From Wickerhamiella versatilis (Eukaryota), in contig JAQOWU010000001.1 in the NCBI GenBank assembly GCA_030867685.1, positions 62,001 to 126,000 on the forward strand: DNA of 64,000 nucleotides, written 5' to 3'. The notes beneath the pieces were generated by a model, which saw only the letters and a list, made by a program, of their open reading frames with translations, had not been told where the DNA came from and did not search any database. Positions 1,928 to 53,495 of the stretch are shown piece after piece; positions within the stretch are counted from its first letter, which is position 1; each line of letters begins with the position of its first letter. A program made the translations under genes and the position numbers.

Positions 1928-2527
1928 ATGCCTGTGTATGTCTATAGTACTGGGGAACTACGAGAACTGAGCCACTCAGAACTTGTTGCACCACCATCAT
2001 TCAAATGGAACGACATCAAGAAGGCGGACGAGATAGCCGAACCATTCTACGGAGCCGGTAGTGGTCAACGTGCTCGCCGTCGGTCATCTCACAACCAGCA
2101 GAGGCCTCCTCGTCCACCCGTGATGCCCAAAGCACAAATTCCACTAGCTCAACGCCGCGAGCTATTCGGGGATAATAAAAACATCGCCACAGCGGGCGAC
2201 GAGAACGGGGACGATGATGATACTCCGCCCGATGACGAACTGGCAGCGAAGTATCTTCTTCCTCAGAAACACGCAAAGACACTCGAGCAGCAAAAGGATG
2301 CTGATGGACACTATGATGCTGATGGGAATCCTGTAGTACCGTTGAAGTATGCAGCTGCACTTGCGGCATCGATGCATACAGAATCGGGCACAGGTGGAGG
2401 CTCGGCTGTTGCTGATGAAGACGATGGAGACTGGATTAGTGTAACACACCAACCGAAGAACCGCAAAAAAAGTTTTGGAAGCAGGAACAGAGGATCATTT
2501 TCGCGCTGGCGCAAAACCGAGATTTAG
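1928..2527 (+). CDS. CAF20: Caf20/p20-like eIF4E-binding protein (putative)
   Basis: First ATG at 1928. N-terminal YSTGELREL resembles the 4E-binding motif; RRRSSH, DNKNI and DGDW resemble short Caf20 motifs; disordered, acidic composition. Confidence 0.55.
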   Translation: MPVYVYSTGELRELSHSELVAPPSFKWNDIKKADEIAEPFYGAGSGQRARRRSSHNQQRPPRPPVMPKAQIPLAQRRELFGDNKNIATAGDENGDDDDTPPDDELAAKYLLPQKHAKTLEQQKDADGHYDADGNPVVPLKYAAALAASMHTESGTGGGSAVADEDDGDWISVTHQPKNRKKSFGSRNRGSFSRWRKTEI

Positions 2528-26489: not shown

Positions 26490-26846
26490 ATGAATGCACC
26501 TGATCGGTTCGAGCTCTTCCTGCTGCCAGATGGTGTCTCCAAAGTTACGGTTTCGCCTGACCAGCGTATGCCAAATGCTGCGGTTATGAAATTTGAGCGC
26601 GAGGACCACACGCTGGGAAATCTACTCACACACCAATTAAACGAGGATCCCCGGGTAATTTATGCTGCCTACAAAGTTGAGCACCCACTTTTTGCGAATT
26701 TTGTGATGCGCATTCAGACGGAGGATGGATACACACCACGTGAAGCACTTAAGGCTGCGTGTAATAACCTCATCGGACATTTGGGAGTATTGACGCAGAA
26801 GTTTCGGTCTGAGTACGGTCTGAAGGCAATATTGGGCGAAGAGTAA
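26490..26846 (+). CDS. RPB11: RNA polymerase II subunit Rpb11
   Basis: MNAPDRFELFLL from ATG 26490; EDHTLGNLL; AAYKVEHP. Confidence 0.97.
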   Translation: MNAPDRFELFLLPDGVSKVTVSPDQRMPNAAVMKFEREDHTLGNLLTHQLNEDPRVIYAAYKVEHPLFANFVMRIQTEDGYTPREALKAACNNLIGHLGVLTQKFRSEYGLKAILGEE

Positions 26847-28895
26847 ATAAATATTTATTATTGCAAGGTACGCGTGTAGACAAAATTGCCCTTTTCTGAG
26901 ATTGTGTGAGACCAGCGGGGCATCGAGGCTGTGTTGAAAACTTCGAAATAATCACGATATAACTAACCACATCAACATGGATAAACGGTAAATACCAGTG
27001 TATTACTCTAGTTGAAATTAAAAAGCCGACATTTCCTAAGGCGACAAACAGCGGGTATAAGTTCATCCAGTCAGTATGCAACATAGATATTCGAATGCCA
27101 TAAGCGGCATTTCCAGTTCCAAAAAGAAAAGGCTTAAAATTGGCGTATGGTTGGATATGTAGCGTAGCTTTCTCGTGACATATGGTGGTTAAATTCGTAA
27201 GGAAGACTCCAGCGTGACATAACCTGATTACACGATAATTAGCGCGAATGAAGTACCTAATCCCGGTTTTCATTTTTTGTTTTCAAGTACATACTTAGGA
27301 ACCAAGTAAGCTATGGTGGAGTTTATATGAGACAGAAGCCACTGCCTCACTTTGAAAGGTCAAGGGAATATATAATTCACGTTAGATAGTAGAGCGGATA
27401 TGCATCACGGAAAAGCCCGAAAAGCACATATCCAACCCTGAATAAAAAACTGAGCTAGAGGTTAACCGCAGTGAAAGCAAGGTCAATAATCAACAGGATT
27501 TAATCCCACCCTTCCCCTACACAGTAGCGCCGTGGCATATTCTCGATCTTTAATGATGAGCCTCGTCTGCCGGGGGTACTAAAGTAATGCACGATTAACA
27601 ATCATATGTGCAGTATTTACACATTAATCTGCATGTGTCTTCCGGTAGAACTAGTTCCTCCGGCCATATTAGAACAAATTGAAAGTAGCTAATTAGAAAA
27701 ATACCGGACAGCAAATCGTATGTCGTAGTATGTCTGCATGAGACTATAAAGAACTATAGGGACACATCTCTGGCTTATGACAAGAATGAAGCTACAGAAA
27801 GGACTAGTATCTATGACCACATGATAGATCTTAAAATGTACACATATTTTGGCCGATCACATAACAAAATCGATAGCTCCGAACACAAGCATGAAAACTT
27901 TTATTCGGACTATACCACTTTAAAATTTACACTGAGACAAGTTCGAGAGGCAGAGTAGGAAACCATTCTAAGCATAAAAAATTATATCAAGCAATGGAAA
28001 GTCGAAAGATGCGGCGATTACTGTAACACTTGCGCCTCTCGGGTCCCGGCCGTGAAGCATTCCGCGATCTACACCGCATAACACTAACCCATATACGTAA
28101 ATCAACATGCGCTCACAGTCTTTTCACATTTTCTTGGAATAAAAGTAAAGCCGGATTCTGACGACGCAGGGAAAAACATTAAAACAACTAAAATGCGATA
28201 TTACGGCAAATATGTTTTTTATCGGGCATCGTTCATCAATTGACATATGCGTTATGCTCAGTTACTAACGGTCGGGTGAGACTCACCGATATCTTACGGT
28301 TTGTTTGCCTGGCACCAATCGATCGTAATAGAAGAAATAGCAAGCGTGGATCCAAGATTTTCAAGGAAATCTTCAACTAGTCTCAGGTAGTGAAATGGAC
28401 TGAATAAAAAGTACGCTATTTTTGTACGATTAATTCTCTACGTAAAAAAACAACAACCTCCGAATCTTTATCTTATATCTAGACTCATTGCTCAAAGATC
28501 GAAAAGGACAATCATGTCACGACGATGACGATTAAAACTTATGAATGCATGCTTATCTTGAGATCAACGCTTGTGCGCTTTGACACCTACCAGCGAACTA
28601 TTAATGTGGTGGAGGCGAAGAAGACGTATTTTCTAGCGAGTATTAGAGATGAAAGAAGAAATTTCGTTTCATTTATCTACAAATAAAAAACCTATTATCA
28701 ACTCAGACCCTGGTCGTGTCAAGTGCAGAATTTATAACGCAGATCACTGTGGATCGCTACCATGAGACACTGACACCTTTTACCTTAATTTTTTGATACA
28801 TAGGTCAAGAATGTCCAAAGAACTGTTTTTCCTTAATTCCAATTCAAGACCATCTGCCACAAAAAAAACCGTAGAACATTCCTGCAGATCGTTAG

Positions 28896-28919
28896 GTCAT
28901 CGTCATCGTCATCGTCATC
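28896..28919. repeat. (GTCATC)4 microsatellite
   Basis: Four perfect hexamer copies about 350 nt upstream of the adhesin-like ATG. Confidence 0.9.
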
Positions 28920-29264
28920 CATCGCGCGTCAATTTTCGAATAAGCACTTTTAGAACTGAGATCGACATAATATCCTAAAGACGAAAAACCTACACACACC
29001 ATTATATACCTAAGTGAGAAATATCCAAAGCGCTAGAAACTCGACTCCTTTTTATCTAATAACATTATATCTCGCGGTATGTAAATGTGTCAGCACGCAC
29101 GCACACGCGCACCCAACCCTAGTATTCAAGCGCATCCGACGTCTCTAGATGCACAAAACAGTGAATATGTAATAAATGGGCTAGGTCATACATCTGATGT
29201 ACAGAGCGTTTATATATATATCATCTCAGACATACCAGTTTAACCAGTAAACGTCGCAGGTAGT

Positions 29265-32200
29265 ATGGCCCAGATGTTACGAACCTTTGGCATGCTAGGT
29301 GCACTGGGAAGCACTTTAGCAGCCCAAGGATTCAGTCAAGCTGCATCTGATGGTGTGACATGCTATTCTACTTCAGTAGTCTCATCAGGCGGAGGGTGTA
29401 CTTGCACCTCAGGCCTTGGAGACACTGCGTCAAAACTAATTCAAGATACCCAAAGTTTGTTGAAGGATGCGTCGGCAGCAAGCGTCAGTAACCAGACTCT
29501 ACCATATCAACTTGCTGCTATCGCGTCAGGCATCGACGACTTTATGAAAGTTACAAGCGACGTTGATTGTCTCAGCGCCGAAGCTTCTAATGATTTGCTT
29601 GGCGAATTTGGTAATGTGATTGTAGGGTACACAAAGATACTCGACTCACTTGCCAGTCTTCCTGCTGAGGATTACGAATGGTGTAAGACATGGATTCCAT
29701 CAATCAACTCCGCAGACAAAGAATTAGACCAACTGATATCTAAATACAATTCCTGGCTCTCCCAGAATTCTTGCTGTGTTAATTGTGGTTCCGTTGCTGA
29801 AGTTAATGCTGACCTCCAACAGCTTAACTCAGTAGTAACAAAACTGGGAAGCGTATTCCAGGTATCGGTTGTTGAAATTGACTCGCTTACTGTTTGTAGC
29901 AATGGTAAGCCAGAATGTTCATCAACATCAACGATCATAGTACCTTATCCCTGCACACAGAGCACCACTGGTACAGTGCCACTGCCCAGCAGTACCATAT
30001 CTCCCTCGATACCCACAAGTAGATCACACTCCGGTAGTACCTTGTCTACAGGAAGCAAAAAGTCCTCTGTTGTTTCCTCTAAGATACCCTCGACAAGTTC
30101 ATCTATCCCATATACCCCGTCCTCTCTATCTTCTCGAAGCTCTACAGCTTCCAGTGGATCATCATCTGTCGGTCCTATTGGTCCTAGTGGCACCACTGCC
30201 TCTAGCAAGCCATCTAGCTCAGGCAGCTCGACTGTCTCTAGTGGCTCTTCTGTCTTTAGTGGATCTTCTGCCTCTAGCAAGCCAACAAGCTCAGGCAGCT
30301 CGACTGTCTCTAGTGGCTCTTCTGCCTCTAGCAAGCCAACAAGCTCCGGCAGCTCAACTGTCGGTCCTATTGGTCCTAGTGGCACCACTGTCTCTAGCAA
30401 GCCAACAAGCTCTGGCAGCTCGCCTGTCTCTAGTGGCACCACTGCCTCTAGCAAGCCAACTAGCTCGGGTAGCTCGCCTGTCTCTAGTGGCACCACTGCC
30501 TCTAGCAAGCCAACTAGCTCGGATAGCTCGACTGTCTCTAGTGGCTCTTCTGCCTCTAGTGCATCTTCTGCCTCTAGTGCATCTTCTGCCTCTAGTGGAT
30601 CTTCTGCCTCTAGCAAGCCAACAAGCTCCGGCAGCTCAACTGTCTCCAGTGTAACATCAACTGTCGGTCCTATTGGTCCTAGTGGCACCACTGCCTCTAG
30701 CAAGCCAACAAGCTCCGGCAGCTCAACTGTCGGTCCTATTGGTCCTAGTGGCACCACTGCCTCTAGCAAGCCATCTAGCTCAGGCAGCTCGACTGTCTCT
30801 AGTGGCTCTTCTGCCTCTAGTGGATCTTCTGCCTCTAGCAAGCCAACAAGCTCTGGCAGCTCGACTGTCTCTAGTGGCACCACTGCCTCTAGCAAGCCAT
30901 CTAGCTCAGGTAGCTCGCCTGTTCCTAGCAGCTCCGCTTCCTCTAGCAAGCCGGCTAGCTCAGGTAGCTCGACTGCCTCCAGTGTAACATCAACTGTCGG
31001 TCCTATTGGTCCTAGTGGCACCAATGCCTCTAGCAAGCCAACTAGCTCGGGTAGCTCGACTGTCTCTAGTGGATCTTCTGCCTCTAGCAAGCCAACAAGC
31101 TCGGGTAGCTCACCTGTTCCTAGTAGCTCTGCTTCCTCCAGCAAGCCAGCTAGCTCAGGCAGCTCGACTGTTCCTAGTAGCTCCGGGTCCTCTAGCAAGC
31201 CATCTAGCTCAGGTAGCTCGACTGTCTCTAGTGGCTCTTCTGCCTCTAGTGGATCTTCTGCCTCTAGCAAGCCAACAAGCTCCGGCAGCTCGCCTGTCTC
31301 TAGTGGCACCACTGCATCTAGCAAGCCAACAAGCTCGGGTAGCTTGACTGTCTCTAGTGGCTCTTCTGCCTCTAGCAAGCCAACAAGCTCTGGCAGCTCG
31401 ACTGTCTCTAGTGGCACCACTGCCTCTAGCAAGCCAACAAGCTCCGGCAGCTCGCCCGTCTCTAGTGGCTCTTCTGCCTCTAGCAAGCCAACTAGCTCGG
31501 GTAGCTCGACTGTCTCCAGTGTGACATCAACTGTCGGTCCTATTGGTCCTAGTGGCACCACTGCCTCTAGCAAGCCAACTAGCTCGGGTAGCTCGACTGT
31601 CTCCAGTGTGACATCAACTGTCGGTCCTATTGGTCCTAGTGGCACGACTGCCTCTAGCAAGCCAACCAGCTCTGGCAGCTCGACTGTCTCTAGTGGCTCT
31701 TCTGTCTCTAGCAAGCCAACAAGCTCTGGCAGCTCGACTGTCTCTAGTGGCTCTTCTGCCTCTAGTGGATCTTCTGCCTCTAGCAAGCCAACAAGCTCTG
31801 GCAGCTCGACTGTCTCCAGTGTAACATCAACTGTCGGTCCTATTGGTCCTAGTGGCACCACTGCCTCTAGCAAGCCAACCAGCTCGGGTAGCTCGACTGT
31901 CTCTAGTGGCTCTTCTGCCTCTAGCAAGCCAACAAGCTCTGGTAGCTCGCCTGTTCCTAGCAGCTCCGCTTCCTCTAGCAAGCCGGCTAGCTCAGGTAGC
32001 TCGACTGCCTCCAGTGTAACATCAACTGTCGGTCCTATTGGTCCTAGTGGCACCACTGCCTCTAGCAAGCCATCTAGCTCAGGCAGCTCGACTGTCTCTA
32101 GTGGCTCTTCTGCCTCTAGCAAGCCAACAAGCTCAGGCAGCTCACCTGTTTCTAGTGGCACCACTGCCTCTAGCAAGCCAACAAGCTCTGGTAGCTCGCC

Positions 32201-33206
32201 TGTTCCTAGCAGCTCCGCTTCCTCTAGCAAGCCAGCTAGCTCAGGCAGCTCGACTATTCATAGTAGTGGCTCAGTGTCTTCTTCCTCATCGAGTAAGTCT
32301 GTGGAGACTTCACCAACTAGGCCCTCATCAAGGAGCAGTTCGTCGTTCAGTTCCCCACTCTCTTCGGCTAGTGGATGCTCTTGCACCGTGGTCGGTAGTG
32401 ACCCAGTGGATGGTAGCTGCACGTCGACACTGTCTGATTCTGCTTTCGATAAATTGACGGATGCTAATGACAAGATTCAGAACTTGCTTGCGTCTGGTGT
32501 TAACCCTGATGATGTATCTCCGATTCTGTCCGCTGTGTCAGGTGAGATATCCGACGTGACTTCTTTGGTTGAGTCGGTGGACTGTGTCAGTACCGACGTT
32601 GGTCGCGAATTGCTCAGCCACCTGAGTGTGGTTCTAGGGTCTTACGTTGAGTTTACCACTCAGAGTGAGATAAAGTCTGTGTTTGGTCAGTGCCCTACTT
32701 GCTTTGACGAATACACTACCGTCGATAAGCAATTGTCATCGCTGATTGTACTTCTAGATGACAGATTCAAGAGCAAGCCGTGCTCAATTGACTGCAATGA
32801 AGTGGCTCTGGTCAATGGCTATATCAGTACACTTAATGACGTTGGTAAGGCAACTGGTGATAGCTTGGGCAAAGAAGTTATTTCGATCTCGAGCTTTTCT
32901 GTTTGTAAGTCTATCCCAAGCTCATGCTCTCAGTCTACCTGGACTTCAGTGATTCCGGTTCCCTGCACAGCCAGTTCGTTACTCACCGGAACGATTACAG
33001 CAACCGGCCAGGCCGAAGCTGCAGTTGAGCAGCTGGTAGGTACAAACAAATTACAAAGGCGTGCCGCACCTACTTCAGCGGTCTCAAGTACTTTGGGCAA
33101 TGTAACTAGCCGAGCTACCGTTCCTACGCAACAAGGCACAGGAAGCGCCCTGAAACCAATGGGAACCCTTGCTGCTGTTGGTTTCGTGATTGCAATGCTC
33201 ATTTAG
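29265..33206 (+). CDS. Secreted, probably GPI-anchored Ser/Thr-rich cell-wall (adhesin/mucin-like) protein with a duplicated Cys-rich domain
   Basis: Signal-peptide-like N-terminus, ~700-aa Ser-rich tandem repeats, terminal GTGSAL...LAAVGFVIAMLI GPI-like signal, two homologous Cys-rich domains. Confidence 0.88.
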   Translation: MAQMLRTFGMLGALGSTLAAQGFSQAASDGVTCYSTSVVSSGGGCTCTSGLGDTASKLIQDTQSLLKDASAASVSNQTLPYQLAAIASGIDDFMKVTSDVDCLSAEASNDLLGEFGNVIVGYTKILDSLASLPAEDYEWCKTWIPSINSADKELDQLISKYNSWLSQNSCCVNCGSVAEVNADLQQLNSVVTKLGSVFQVSVVEIDSLTVCSNGKPECSSTSTIIVPYPCTQSTTGTVPLPSSTISPSIPTSRSHSGSTLSTGSKKSSVVSSKIPSTSSSIPYTPSSLSSRSSTASSGSSSVGPIGPSGTTASSKPSSSGSSTVSSGSSVFSGSSASSKPTSSGSSTVSSGSSASSKPTSSGSSTVGPIGPSGTTVSSKPTSSGSSPVSSGTTASSKPTSSGSSPVSSGTTASSKPTSSDSSTVSSGSSASSASSASSASSASSGSSASSKPTSSGSSTVSSVTSTVGPIGPSGTTASSKPTSSGSSTVGPIGPSGTTASSKPSSSGSSTVSSGSSASSGSSASSKPTSSGSSTVSSGTTASSKPSSSGSSPVPSSSASSSKPASSGSSTASSVTSTVGPIGPSGTNASSKPTSSGSSTVSSGSSASSKPTSSGSSPVPSSSASSSKPASSGSSTVPSSSGSSSKPSSSGSSTVSSGSSASSGSSASSKPTSSGSSPVSSGTTASSKPTSSGSLTVSSGSSASSKPTSSGSSTVSSGTTASSKPTSSGSSPVSSGSSASSKPTSSGSSTVSSVTSTVGPIGPSGTTASSKPTSSGSSTVSSVTSTVGPIGPSGTTASSKPTSSGSSTVSSGSSVSSKPTSSGSSTVSSGSSASSGSSASSKPTSSGSSTVSSVTSTVGPIGPSGTTASSKPTSSGSSTVSSGSSASSKPTSSGSSPVPSSSASSSKPASSGSSTASSVTSTVGPIGPSGTTASSKPSSSGSSTVSSGSSASSKPTSSGSSPVSSGTTASSKPTSSGSSPVPSSSASSSKPASSGSSTIHSSGSVSSSSSSKSVETSPTRPSSRSSSSFSSPLSSASGCSCTVVGSDPVDGSCTSTLSDSAFDKLTDANDKIQNLLASGVNPDDVSPILSAVSGEISDVTSLVESVDCVSTDVGRELLSHLSVVLGSYVEFTTQSEIKSVFGQCPTCFDEYTTVDKQLSSLIVLLDDRFKSKPCSIDCNEVALVNGYISTLNDVGKATGDSLGKEVISISSFSVCKSIPSSCSQSTWTSVIPVPCTASSLLTGTITATGQAEAAVEQLVGTNKLQRRAAPTSAVSSTLGNVTSRATVPTQQGTGSALKPMGTLAAVGFVIAMLI
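30160..32260 (+). repeat. Intragenic modular minisatellite
   Basis: Core 54-nt unit SSKPTSSGSSTVSSG(S/T)(S/T)A, 18-nt SSGSSA extras, and nine copies of GGTCCTATTGGTCCTAGTGGC (GPIGPSG). Confidence 0.95.
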
Positions 33207-52226: not shown

Positions 52227-53495
52227 TTAGATCTCGGATGACCATCTCTCGCTCGCGTCTTCATTAGCTTGTATAAGTGCACTGGCCATATCCATATCGG
52301 CAAGCTGGTGAAATGACATCGTTGAATCTTCGGGTAATGCATAAGGGTTACTGGTGGTACGGCTCGAGGGGAGTGCTCTCTTTCGGCGGCCTGGCTGCCC
52401 ACCTAGTTCATCCTCACCACGGCGTTTCGTTCCAGAACTAGGTGTGGAAGAAATGGCTGAGGCGTTGGATGCCTTCGCTCCGCATTCTGGACATGCGTCA
52501 ATTACTGAACACACAGTCTTTTTAATATTAGACCAATAATATTTCGAGGTGATGGCTGATGATGTGCGATTGATACCATTATGGTTCTCGCTATGTATTT
52601 TGCTAGCAAGCTGCTCCTGTCTTGCTACGTCCCACACCACTTCACGGTTACCATTACGAAGTATAAGCCTACCTTGATCAGAGACACTATATTTACATGC
52701 CGCTGCTCGCAACCGGCTCTTCTCGGCAGTGTCCGCATTTCTAGGGTATCTACCTGACCGAAGATAGTGCTCGAGCCTCTGGAACCGACGGGCGTCCGCT
52801 TCTGCAGACCGTACGGAAACATGAGGTAATTCTGCAGAGCTGTCCAGGTCATCAGAAGCCGTCTCTTCCAGTCCCTGGTCCATGAAATTCCGTGAATAAA
52901 TAAAGGCATCCACCCGCCGTGGTGGTGAGCTCTGAACGAACCCCGCACCTTTGATACGACCACACCTTTTATAACCAGAAGCCTCCAGCATCTTTATGAA
53001 TGGAAGGTTGGTGGCATAAACAAGATCGAAAATTCCTTGAGTGAATCCCAGCTTTAGGCTCCAATCAGCGAAACACGACATCAGCGCCTTTCCAATTCCC
53101 TTGCCTCTAATACCTGAGTTCACGAGAAATCCGCCACTCACCAAGTGGCCACTTCTTCCTGGGTAGCATTGCCGCATGTAAAATGCACCGAGACATTCTT
53201 TTTCCCAATGTGGACGCGTTTGTATTGTGGCACTCTCTCCTAAGAGCATAATTCCTGCAAGACCTCCACCGAACCAATAGTCTTGAAATGCCTCAATACG
53301 CATCTCAGTGTAGTAAGGCACGCCCTCACCTTTCTCAATTTCTAAATTGAATTCGTCACAGAGAAACGCCTGTAGCTCAAGCGGCACGTGCTCTGGCCCT
53401 GAAAAAGGGTATACCGTTGCCTTGGTCTCGCCATCATTTAGCAAAACGGTGCAGTGCTCAACGATGCCCATTTCGGGGCTATCGCGAGGACGCAT
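52227..53495 (-). CDS. SPT10: Spt10 histone-gene activator (GNAT plus H2C2 zinc domain)
   Basis: WEKECLGAFY..CYPGRSGH, RGKGIGK, H...H.GIN...YYW...C..C. Confidence 0.9.
   Translation of the reverse strand: MRPRDSPEMGIVEHCTVLLNDGETKATVYPFSGPEHVPLELQAFLCDEFNLEIEKGEGVPYYTEMRIEAFQDYWFGGGLAGIMLLGESATIQTRPHWEKECLGAFYMRQCYPGRSGHLVSGGFLVNSGIRGKGIGKALMSCFADWSLKLGFTQGIFDLVYATNLPFIKMLEASGYKRCGRIKGAGFVQSSPPRRVDAFIYSRNFMDQGLEETASDDLDSSAELPHVSVRSAEADARRFQRLEHYLRSGRYPRNADTAEKSRLRAAACKYSVSDQGRLILRNGNREVVWDVARQEQLASKIHSENHNGINRTSSAITSKYYWSNIKKTVCSVIDACPECGAKASNASAISSTPSSGTKRRGEDELGGQPGRRKRALPSSRTTSNPYALPEDSTMSFHQLADMDMASALIQANEDASERWSSEI

Follow-up and report, generated by a model that had tools for sequence, protein, structure and literature searches.

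A cysteine-rich, predicted helical module at both ends of a serine-rich stalk in a putative surface protein of Wickerhamiella versatilis

Glycosylphosphatidylinositol (GPI)-anchored adhesins of the Flo11, PA14/GLEYA (Flo and Epa) and Als types combine a secretion signal, one N-terminal folded domain, Ser/Thr-rich repeats and a GPI signal (available part of PMC6023273). Talaromyces marneffei Mp1p carries two homologous domains ahead of a Ser/Thr-rich region that lies at its C-terminal end (residues 354-447 of 462), together with a GPI signal, and has a paralogue family within one genome (PMC4999278, sections available to us); fatty acids are bound within a cavity at the centre of its domains (accessible text of PMC12194118). 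HsbA (PF12296), which has five helices round a hydrophobic cavity, is closest to Mp1p (PMC13537970, in the portion at hand). Here we analysed a 64,000-nucleotide stretch of Wickerhamiella versatilis DNA (contig JAQOWU010000001.1, positions 62,001 to 126,000; 'the window') and within it a gene whose product shares the N-terminal folded domain and Ser/Thr-rich tandem-repeat stalk of these adhesins and has a probable signal peptide and a GPI-like tail, but whose head is predicted to be all-helical and which has a second, homologous folded domain at the anchor end. A sequence-only reading had described this product as a 'dumbbell', with one Cys-rich domain at both ends of a stalk. That A-stalk-B arrangement proved to be real but incomplete as a description of the family: judged by sequence, the dumbbell represents just one arrangement among several that a mobile module takes, and the fold of this module is probably that of Mp1p and HsbA by descent.

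The protein runs in the order signal, domain A, 806-residue Ser-rich stalk, domain B, LQRR and GPI-like tail, with all 22 Cys inside the two domains. The signal peptide and GPI signal were judged by hydropathy and pattern only.

29265-33206, + strand: whole open reading frame (ORF), 1313 residues, predicted secreted GPI-type surface protein
29265-29324, + strand: probable signal peptide, residues 1-20, assigned by inspection; paralogues start similarly
29361-29957, + strand: domain A, residues 33-231, predicted five-helix bundle, 11 Cys
29682-29684, + strand: C140, the probable unpaired Cys of domain A, from co-variation of Cys columns
29958-32375, + strand: stalk, residues 232-1037, 806 residues of Ser-rich tandem repeats, from repeat analysis
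32376-32969, + strand: domain B, residues 1038-1235, predicted bundle of five helices flanked by an initial and a terminal beta strand, 11 Cys
32382-32384, + strand: C1040, the probable unpaired Cys of domain B, from co-variation of Cys columns
33051-33062, + strand: LQRR, residues 1263-1266, a Kex2-type L-x-x-R motif that lies past domain B and ahead of the anchor signal
33135-33203, + strand: GPI-anchor-like signal, residues 1291-1313, by pattern only (small residues, spacer, hydrophobic tail)

The stalk is 47% Ser and divides into 33 pieces, 18 of which are units of the 18-residue base length, with variants of 22, 24 and 29 residues and nine GPIGP motifs; its DNA arrays match at 58-94%, so that the earlier description of the repeats as near-identical was roughly right. 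We infer that the protein is secreted, carries O-glycans on its stalk and is held by a GPI anchor.

Two old copies of one domain and their relatives

Domains A and B are clearly homologous. BLASTP aligned them with 53 of 187 residues identical (28%, E 9e-21), and their global alignment score of 220 (Z 16.5; local Z 27.8) was reached by none of 2,000 shuffles. Each domain has 11 Cys, nine of them in register, as the sequence-only reading had counted, and every motif pair it quoted is present in the colinear alignment, whose significance it had named as decisive. No similarity between A and B remains at the DNA level, and in a tree the A copies from different genes group together, apart from a clade of the B copies. 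Domain A of the window gene is 62% identical to domain A of a paralogue (L009) and 28% identical to its own domain B, placing the A/B split before these genes; on the tree, the duplication is old, as had been proposed.

We queried the 9.88-Mb genome (8 contigs) with both domains, with one free copy and with P0003, a protein from outside this genome, and found at least 31 full copies of the module in 13 ORFs, a lower bound given that 31-32 candidates were scored per search; 21 of the 31 copies entered the family profile. Only 2 of the 13 genes carry both A and B: the window gene (A-stalk-B) and L009, in which a GLEYA/PA14 head and Thr-rich repeats precede the same A-stalk-B arrangement. L010 has a Flo11 head followed by eight tandem copies, a stalk and B. 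Five genes (L011, L013, L014, L015 and L017) have one to four tandem copies, a stalk and a hydrophobic tail, L011 with two tandem-type copies ahead of its stalk, and five more (three at L012, plus L022 and L016) are free secreted single domains. A midpoint-rooted tree of the same 21 copies resolved three groups: A (support 99/98), B (97/98) and the tandem type (100/99). Four other GLEYA or Flo11 adhesin genes of the genome were examined and none has the module. The heads of the yeast adhesins reviewed are N-terminal (PMC6023273, part available), whereas this module, predicted to be all-helical, occurs at either end of a protein, in runs of as many as eight copies, as free proteins and in company with Flo11 and GLEYA heads, all within 13 genes of a single small genome.

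Several family members and the GLEYA adhesin genes merit separate mention. The three adjacent genes at L012:2430-8273 (+ strand) encode free secreted single-domain copies of 229-232 residues and are the easiest members to express. The free B-like copy at L016:3754-4356 (- strand) has 5 Cys, lacks four otherwise universal cysteines and sits on a long tree branch. All four GLEYA adhesin genes found (L029, L030, L031 and L009) lie 40-55 kb from a contig start, and several module genes are also close to contig ends.

Outside the genome we found relatives in near kin only, together with P0003, whose B cassette is 46% identical to the closest copy in this genome. Homologue searches matched 3 of 2,316, 2 of 7,999 and 0 of 8,000 candidates, all apparently from the same species or near kin; the searches of longer proteins are weak evidence of absence. 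The collections hold few annotated yeasts, judging by their matches. A representative search with A alone gave four matches, among which P0004 was dropped as an unrelated repeat protein matched over 34 residues. Metagenome scans returned no match for domain B, and three 24-residue metagenome matches of a tandem copy were rejected (family profile E 4.4-7.2); the ESM Atlas had no usable match for A or for a tandem-type copy.

In Pfam, A had no match better than E 0.16 and B had none, and the whole protein and 15 copies gave sub-threshold noise. No described sequence family fits, then, which bears out the earlier suggestion of a possibly undescribed family and leaves it without a confident known-family match. 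A literature search, which most subscription journals lay outside, found no description of the module or its layout. Six adhesin terms are absent from the main text of PMC13376923, and the gene-family and xenologue tables in the supplements of PMC13376923 and PMC12322030 may list these genes. The new elements are the family of Cys-clamped domains as such, its combination by shuffling with heads of the Flo11 and GLEYA types, its arrays of up to eight copies and its B-LxxR-GPI cassette.

Predicted fold and relation to Mp1p and HsbA

We modelled both domains with AlphaFold2, obtaining five long helices for A (predicted local distance difference test score (pLDDT) 78.4, predicted template-modelling score (pTM) 0.73) and five helices with one strand at each end for B (pLDDT 86.6, pTM 0.80), as expected from the sequence-only proposal of a disulphide-rich helical bundle. 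Among 48,161 PDB representatives, the closest structures to A were Afmp4p of Aspergillus fumigatus (5j5l, Z 13.3, root-mean-square deviation (rmsd) 2.7, 143 of 152 residues aligned) and Mp1p LBD1 (5ecf, Z 12.5). The closest to B was 5ecf (Z 12.6, rmsd 2.9, 142 of 151 aligned), which headed ranks 1-4 (5ecf, 8paq, 5j5l and 6j6f; Z 12.3-12.6), with 6zpp at rank 6. In Foldseek, Mp1p headed the ranking for A (E 0.05) and came second for B (E 0.02), each with probability 1.00. Both models thus show the five-helix bundle of about 150 residues with Mp1p/HsbA topology (Z 12.5-13.4, 139-143 residues aligned), and the Mp1p-type chains, namely Mp1p LBD1/LBD2 (5ecf, 5e7x, 5fb7, 6j6f) and Afmp4p (5j5k, 5j5l), are secreted, of the same length, and superpose at Z 12.5-13.4 and rmsd 2.7-2.9. 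The alignment of these small, secreted fungal chains with both models extends over their full length with hardly a gap, which favours descent. In all 21 copies aligned, the helix faces that point inward are aliphatic.

Mp1p and Afmp4p share 8-13% identity with the module and were not found by sequence; the module differs from Mp1p in having 6-11 Cys per domain, up to nine copies per chain and the LxxR cassette, and the window protein departs from the Mp1p order of two domains ahead of a C-terminal Ser/Thr-rich region, with its domain B following the 806-residue stalk instead. Two further matches, Drechmeria g7941 (6zpp), which has been called a 5-helix bundle effector family (PMC10462633, in its accessible part), and the Pleurotus laccase small subunit (8paq), gave Z 11.2-12.5 over 142-150 residues; both are single small proteins, unlike the window protein, and we would group them with Mp1p and HsbA on the shared structural match.

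Sequence evidence for the link is no more than suggestive. By profile score the module is not a member of PF12296: A, B, 15 aligned copies and 10 paralogues had no match at the 33.5-bit cut-off, at which two HsbA proteins of the genome served as positive controls (L019, 47.6 bits; L020, 42.1 bits). The genome holds six separate PF12296 loci, four above the cut-off and none in the module family, and a profile of these six found Afmp4p at E 4e-12. The earlier proposal of HsbA/Mp1p-likeness therefore stands for the predicted fold, in which Mp1p-type structures top the matches, and fails for HsbA family membership. Profile comparison (hhalign) of the module with the genome's own HsbA proteins gave weak, colinear alignments (probability 32% and 12%, 116-120 columns). 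One of these proteins, L018, aligned with domain B of L010 in register over about 120 residues, its Pro-Cys falling on the Pro-Cys of the module family, with a score of 97 that exceeded those of 59 background segments and was reached by 0 of 1,000 block shuffles at block lengths 1, 7 and 14 and by 5 of 1,000 at 21.

Several observations weigh against the proposed descent and against lipid binding. The tool's own stated limit is Z near 13, and values below about 13 may reflect a common helical-bundle arrangement; FANCI ranked third for A (Z 12.3) and a nucleoporin model fifth for B (Z 12.1). No Foldseek E fell below 0.001 for either domain, and the two models share alignment rows and hence are not independent. 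Family profiles of the module missed Mp1p and Afmp4p at E 10 in a PDB sequence search, the profile-profile score against HsbA was 24.5 where block-shuffled controls reached 26-29, and the L018/L010-B pair was the best of 66 comparisons, with an out-of-register pair scoring 92. Domain A has six aromatics on 31 inward positions, against two or three in tandem copies, and these could fill a cavity; the disulphides may block an opening required for lipid entry. We nevertheless consider an Mp1p/HsbA-type fold by descent probable.

Some candidates were set aside along the way. The PDB matches of the family profiles were just designed coiled coils and generic helices; DUF3164, Lip_C and Tad5 matches on repeat proteins were dropped for want of a passing stretch; and L019, a canonical HsbA protein (1429-2010, + strand) with 14 Cys and a Cys-rich C-terminal end, was rejected as a bridge to the module (hhalign E 0.19). 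L018 (799-1920, - strand), an HsbA-domain protein with a Gly-Ala run and a His-rich stalk, is the best candidate bridge.

Cleavage motif, spare cysteines and candidate roles

The sequence-only reading had passed over two features, a processing motif and the odd Cys count. After B comes a conserved linker L-x-x-R, then A-x-P, then the anchor signal, in all three B-ending genes and in P0003, with L and R invariant in the four tails; in the last 100 residues of 13 other tailed proteins (five tandem-type, four HsbA, four adhesins) the motif occurs in none. Homology among the tails of the B cassette means that LxxR counts as a single inherited feature and not as four events, which tempers its weight. 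LxxR and RR, like KR, are Kex2 motifs (PMC8528282, available sections), the shedding of Flo11 is partly Kex2-dependent (PMC6308949, as far as its text was accessible), and the genome has one Kex2-like gene, named from its domains. The constant position of B in an LxxR cassette ahead of the anchor suggests shedding, and we put a cut at LxxR at slightly better than an even chance. The Cys count is odd, at 11, in both A copies and all three cassette B copies, whereas tandem copies have 6; co-varying pairs of Cys columns leave one Cys over per A and per cassette B copy, probably C140 in A and C1040 in B, as read from the presence and absence of Cys across copies and not from coordinates. Prediction of an A-B complex gave a score of 0.38 (best of three controls 0.01; at least 80% contact agreement between runs; partner pLDDT 80). 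Of 78 solved complexes, 51 attain the mark for such scores, as do 2 of 108 mismatches; those that attain it at 0.60 or less include just 5 of the 78 solved complexes but all four mismatches that passed (of 180). The controls were unrelated proteins, not paralogues.

The account that we favour, while granting it a little less than an even chance, is a divergent Mp1p/HsbA-fold module that works in adhesin-type proteins by binding lipid or hydrophobic surfaces, as part of a tether shed at LxxR. A and B would be disulphide-clamped, divergent copies of the Mp1p/Afmp4p/HsbA five-helix bundle, recruited as a mobile adhesin module. On a protein that would be secreted, O-glycosylated on its stalk and GPI-anchored, a Kex2-type cut after R1266 would free A-stalk-B from the anchor, at least partly; the anchored form would present A outward, the shed form would be a two-ended tether, and B would serve as a common C-terminal holdfast, also in the GLEYA- and Flo11-headed paralogues. 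By analogy with Mp1p, we see it as an even call whether each bundle binds fatty-acyl chains or hydrophobic surfaces. If it does, the module would be a new class of adhesin domain missed by Pfam-based surveys and would explain film or biofilm formation on oily substrates. The protein may link cells with one another or with oily surfaces, and the B-LxxR-GPI cassette bears on programmed adhesin shedding. The narrow known distribution and the already known fold limit this interest.

The spare cysteines instead fit a protein-protein adhesion or cross-linking unit, in which A would bind B head to tail and inter-chain disulphides would build matrix or cell bridges. The odd Cys number of both A and all three cassette B copies, one of the 11 being left unpaired, is compatible with such disulphides without proving them; L010, which has B but no A, has an odd Cys total, the complex prediction lends weak support, and Aga1-Aga2 are disulphide-linked yeast adhesins (PMC6023273, part available). 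We nonetheless think this fairly unlikely: the tool rates a complex pass of this kind as wrong in the majority of cases, A and B could close a ring given the even total of 22 Cys in the whole protein, and the 15 aligned tandem and free copies have no spare Cys. Free buried Cys are common. A bolder variant, which we regard as improbable, would make the protein a gel-forming-mucin-like one built independently from a lipid-binding fold, its GPI-anchored, LxxR-cut A-stalk-B chains joined head to tail by A-B contacts and one spare Cys per end into a lipid-binding glycoprotein network, held by disulphides, that takes GLEYA lectin and Flo11 heads through the B cassette. MUC2 and VWF likewise have Cys-rich ends round a glycosylated low-complexity middle and polymerise via disulphides at both termini (bioRxiv 2020.03.08.982447, accessible part). 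The likeness is one of layout only: Pfam found no VWD, CysD or CTCK homology in the window protein, and the models are helical.

Were the Mp1p likeness convergent, or ligand binding lost, the module could be a stiff, protease-resistant spacer or wall element, with GLEYA or Flo11 heads doing the binding where present. The lack of a significant sequence link to HsbA, the unrelated helical proteins within one Z unit and the eight tandem copies of L010, which sit behind its Flo11 head like a stalk, all speak for this. Against it stand the five free secreted single-domain proteins, the near-gapless end-to-end alignment of Mp1p-type chains, and six genes in which the module is the sole folded N-terminal part, which a pure spacer leaves unexplained; we judge it unlikely. 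In a further scenario, the module would be a dock for secreted lipase, cutinase or laccase enzymes, holding them on the cell surface or on hydrophobic substrates, as A. oryzae HsbA recruits the cutinase CutL1 (PMC13537970, same portion). The laccase small subunit 8paq ranked first in Foldseek and second in the wide structure search for B, and free secreted copies exist; no secreted hydrolase gene adjoins the window gene among its neighbours by Pfam, however, and we hold the docking role to have only a slim chance. Unlike the typical GPI adhesins, the window protein has no Flo11, PA14/GLEYA or Als head by Pfam match.

Expression, strain variation and neighbouring features

Reads of all four RNA runs (two studies) covered 29000-30150 without joints; mapping covered the 5' part of the gene (to 30150), not the stalk or domain B. 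Set against the neighbouring polymerase-subunit gene, domain A had a relative read depth of 0.135, 0.038, 0.315 and 0.035 in the four runs, a ninefold spread inside one study. Thirteen coding differences between strains were listed (5 more exist), 8 missense and 5 silent, with no Cys changed and no stop; in domain A the 5 missense and 3 silent differences show no sign of strong constraint in this small sample, a further point against the favoured account. The same gene is represented by a public protein, P0010, in which both domains are letter for letter identical and the stalk is 620 residues shorter (window 30250-32030); either a different allele or assembly collapse may account for its shorter stalk. 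That difference in length between assemblies is what a chance similarity, an assembly artefact or a non-coding frame would have in its favour. The A/B alignment at Z above 16, the identical domains in P0010, the paralogue with the same A-stalk-B layout and the RNA reads in 4 of 4 runs already refute such an artefact for the domains and leave it a negligible chance overall.

The gene lies between ordinary yeast genes, an RNA polymerase subunit and an amino-acid permease, and is preceded by a long intergenic region.

27460-29264, + strand: long intergenic stretch upstream of the gene; RNA coverage sets in near 29000 and climbs towards 29250

In one RNA run (X10) coverage started near 29000 and rose near 29240, which suggests a minor long leader. 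Within the leader at 28990-29264 stand six upstream ATGs, each of which opens only a short, closed frame (1-52 residues), and a TATA-like run lies near 29211. Reads extend in a long 3' tail from the RNA polymerase subunit gene (26860-27460), with poly(A) ends at 26896 and 27039; a minus-strand 167-residue ORF at 26770-27273 has no Pfam match and looks spurious. Elsewhere in the window, a 199-residue ORF at 1928-2527 (+ strand) has no Pfam match at E 1e-5, and a 422-residue ORF at 52227-53495 (- strand), amid housekeeping genes, matches solely integrase-type H2C2 zinc fingers in Pfam.

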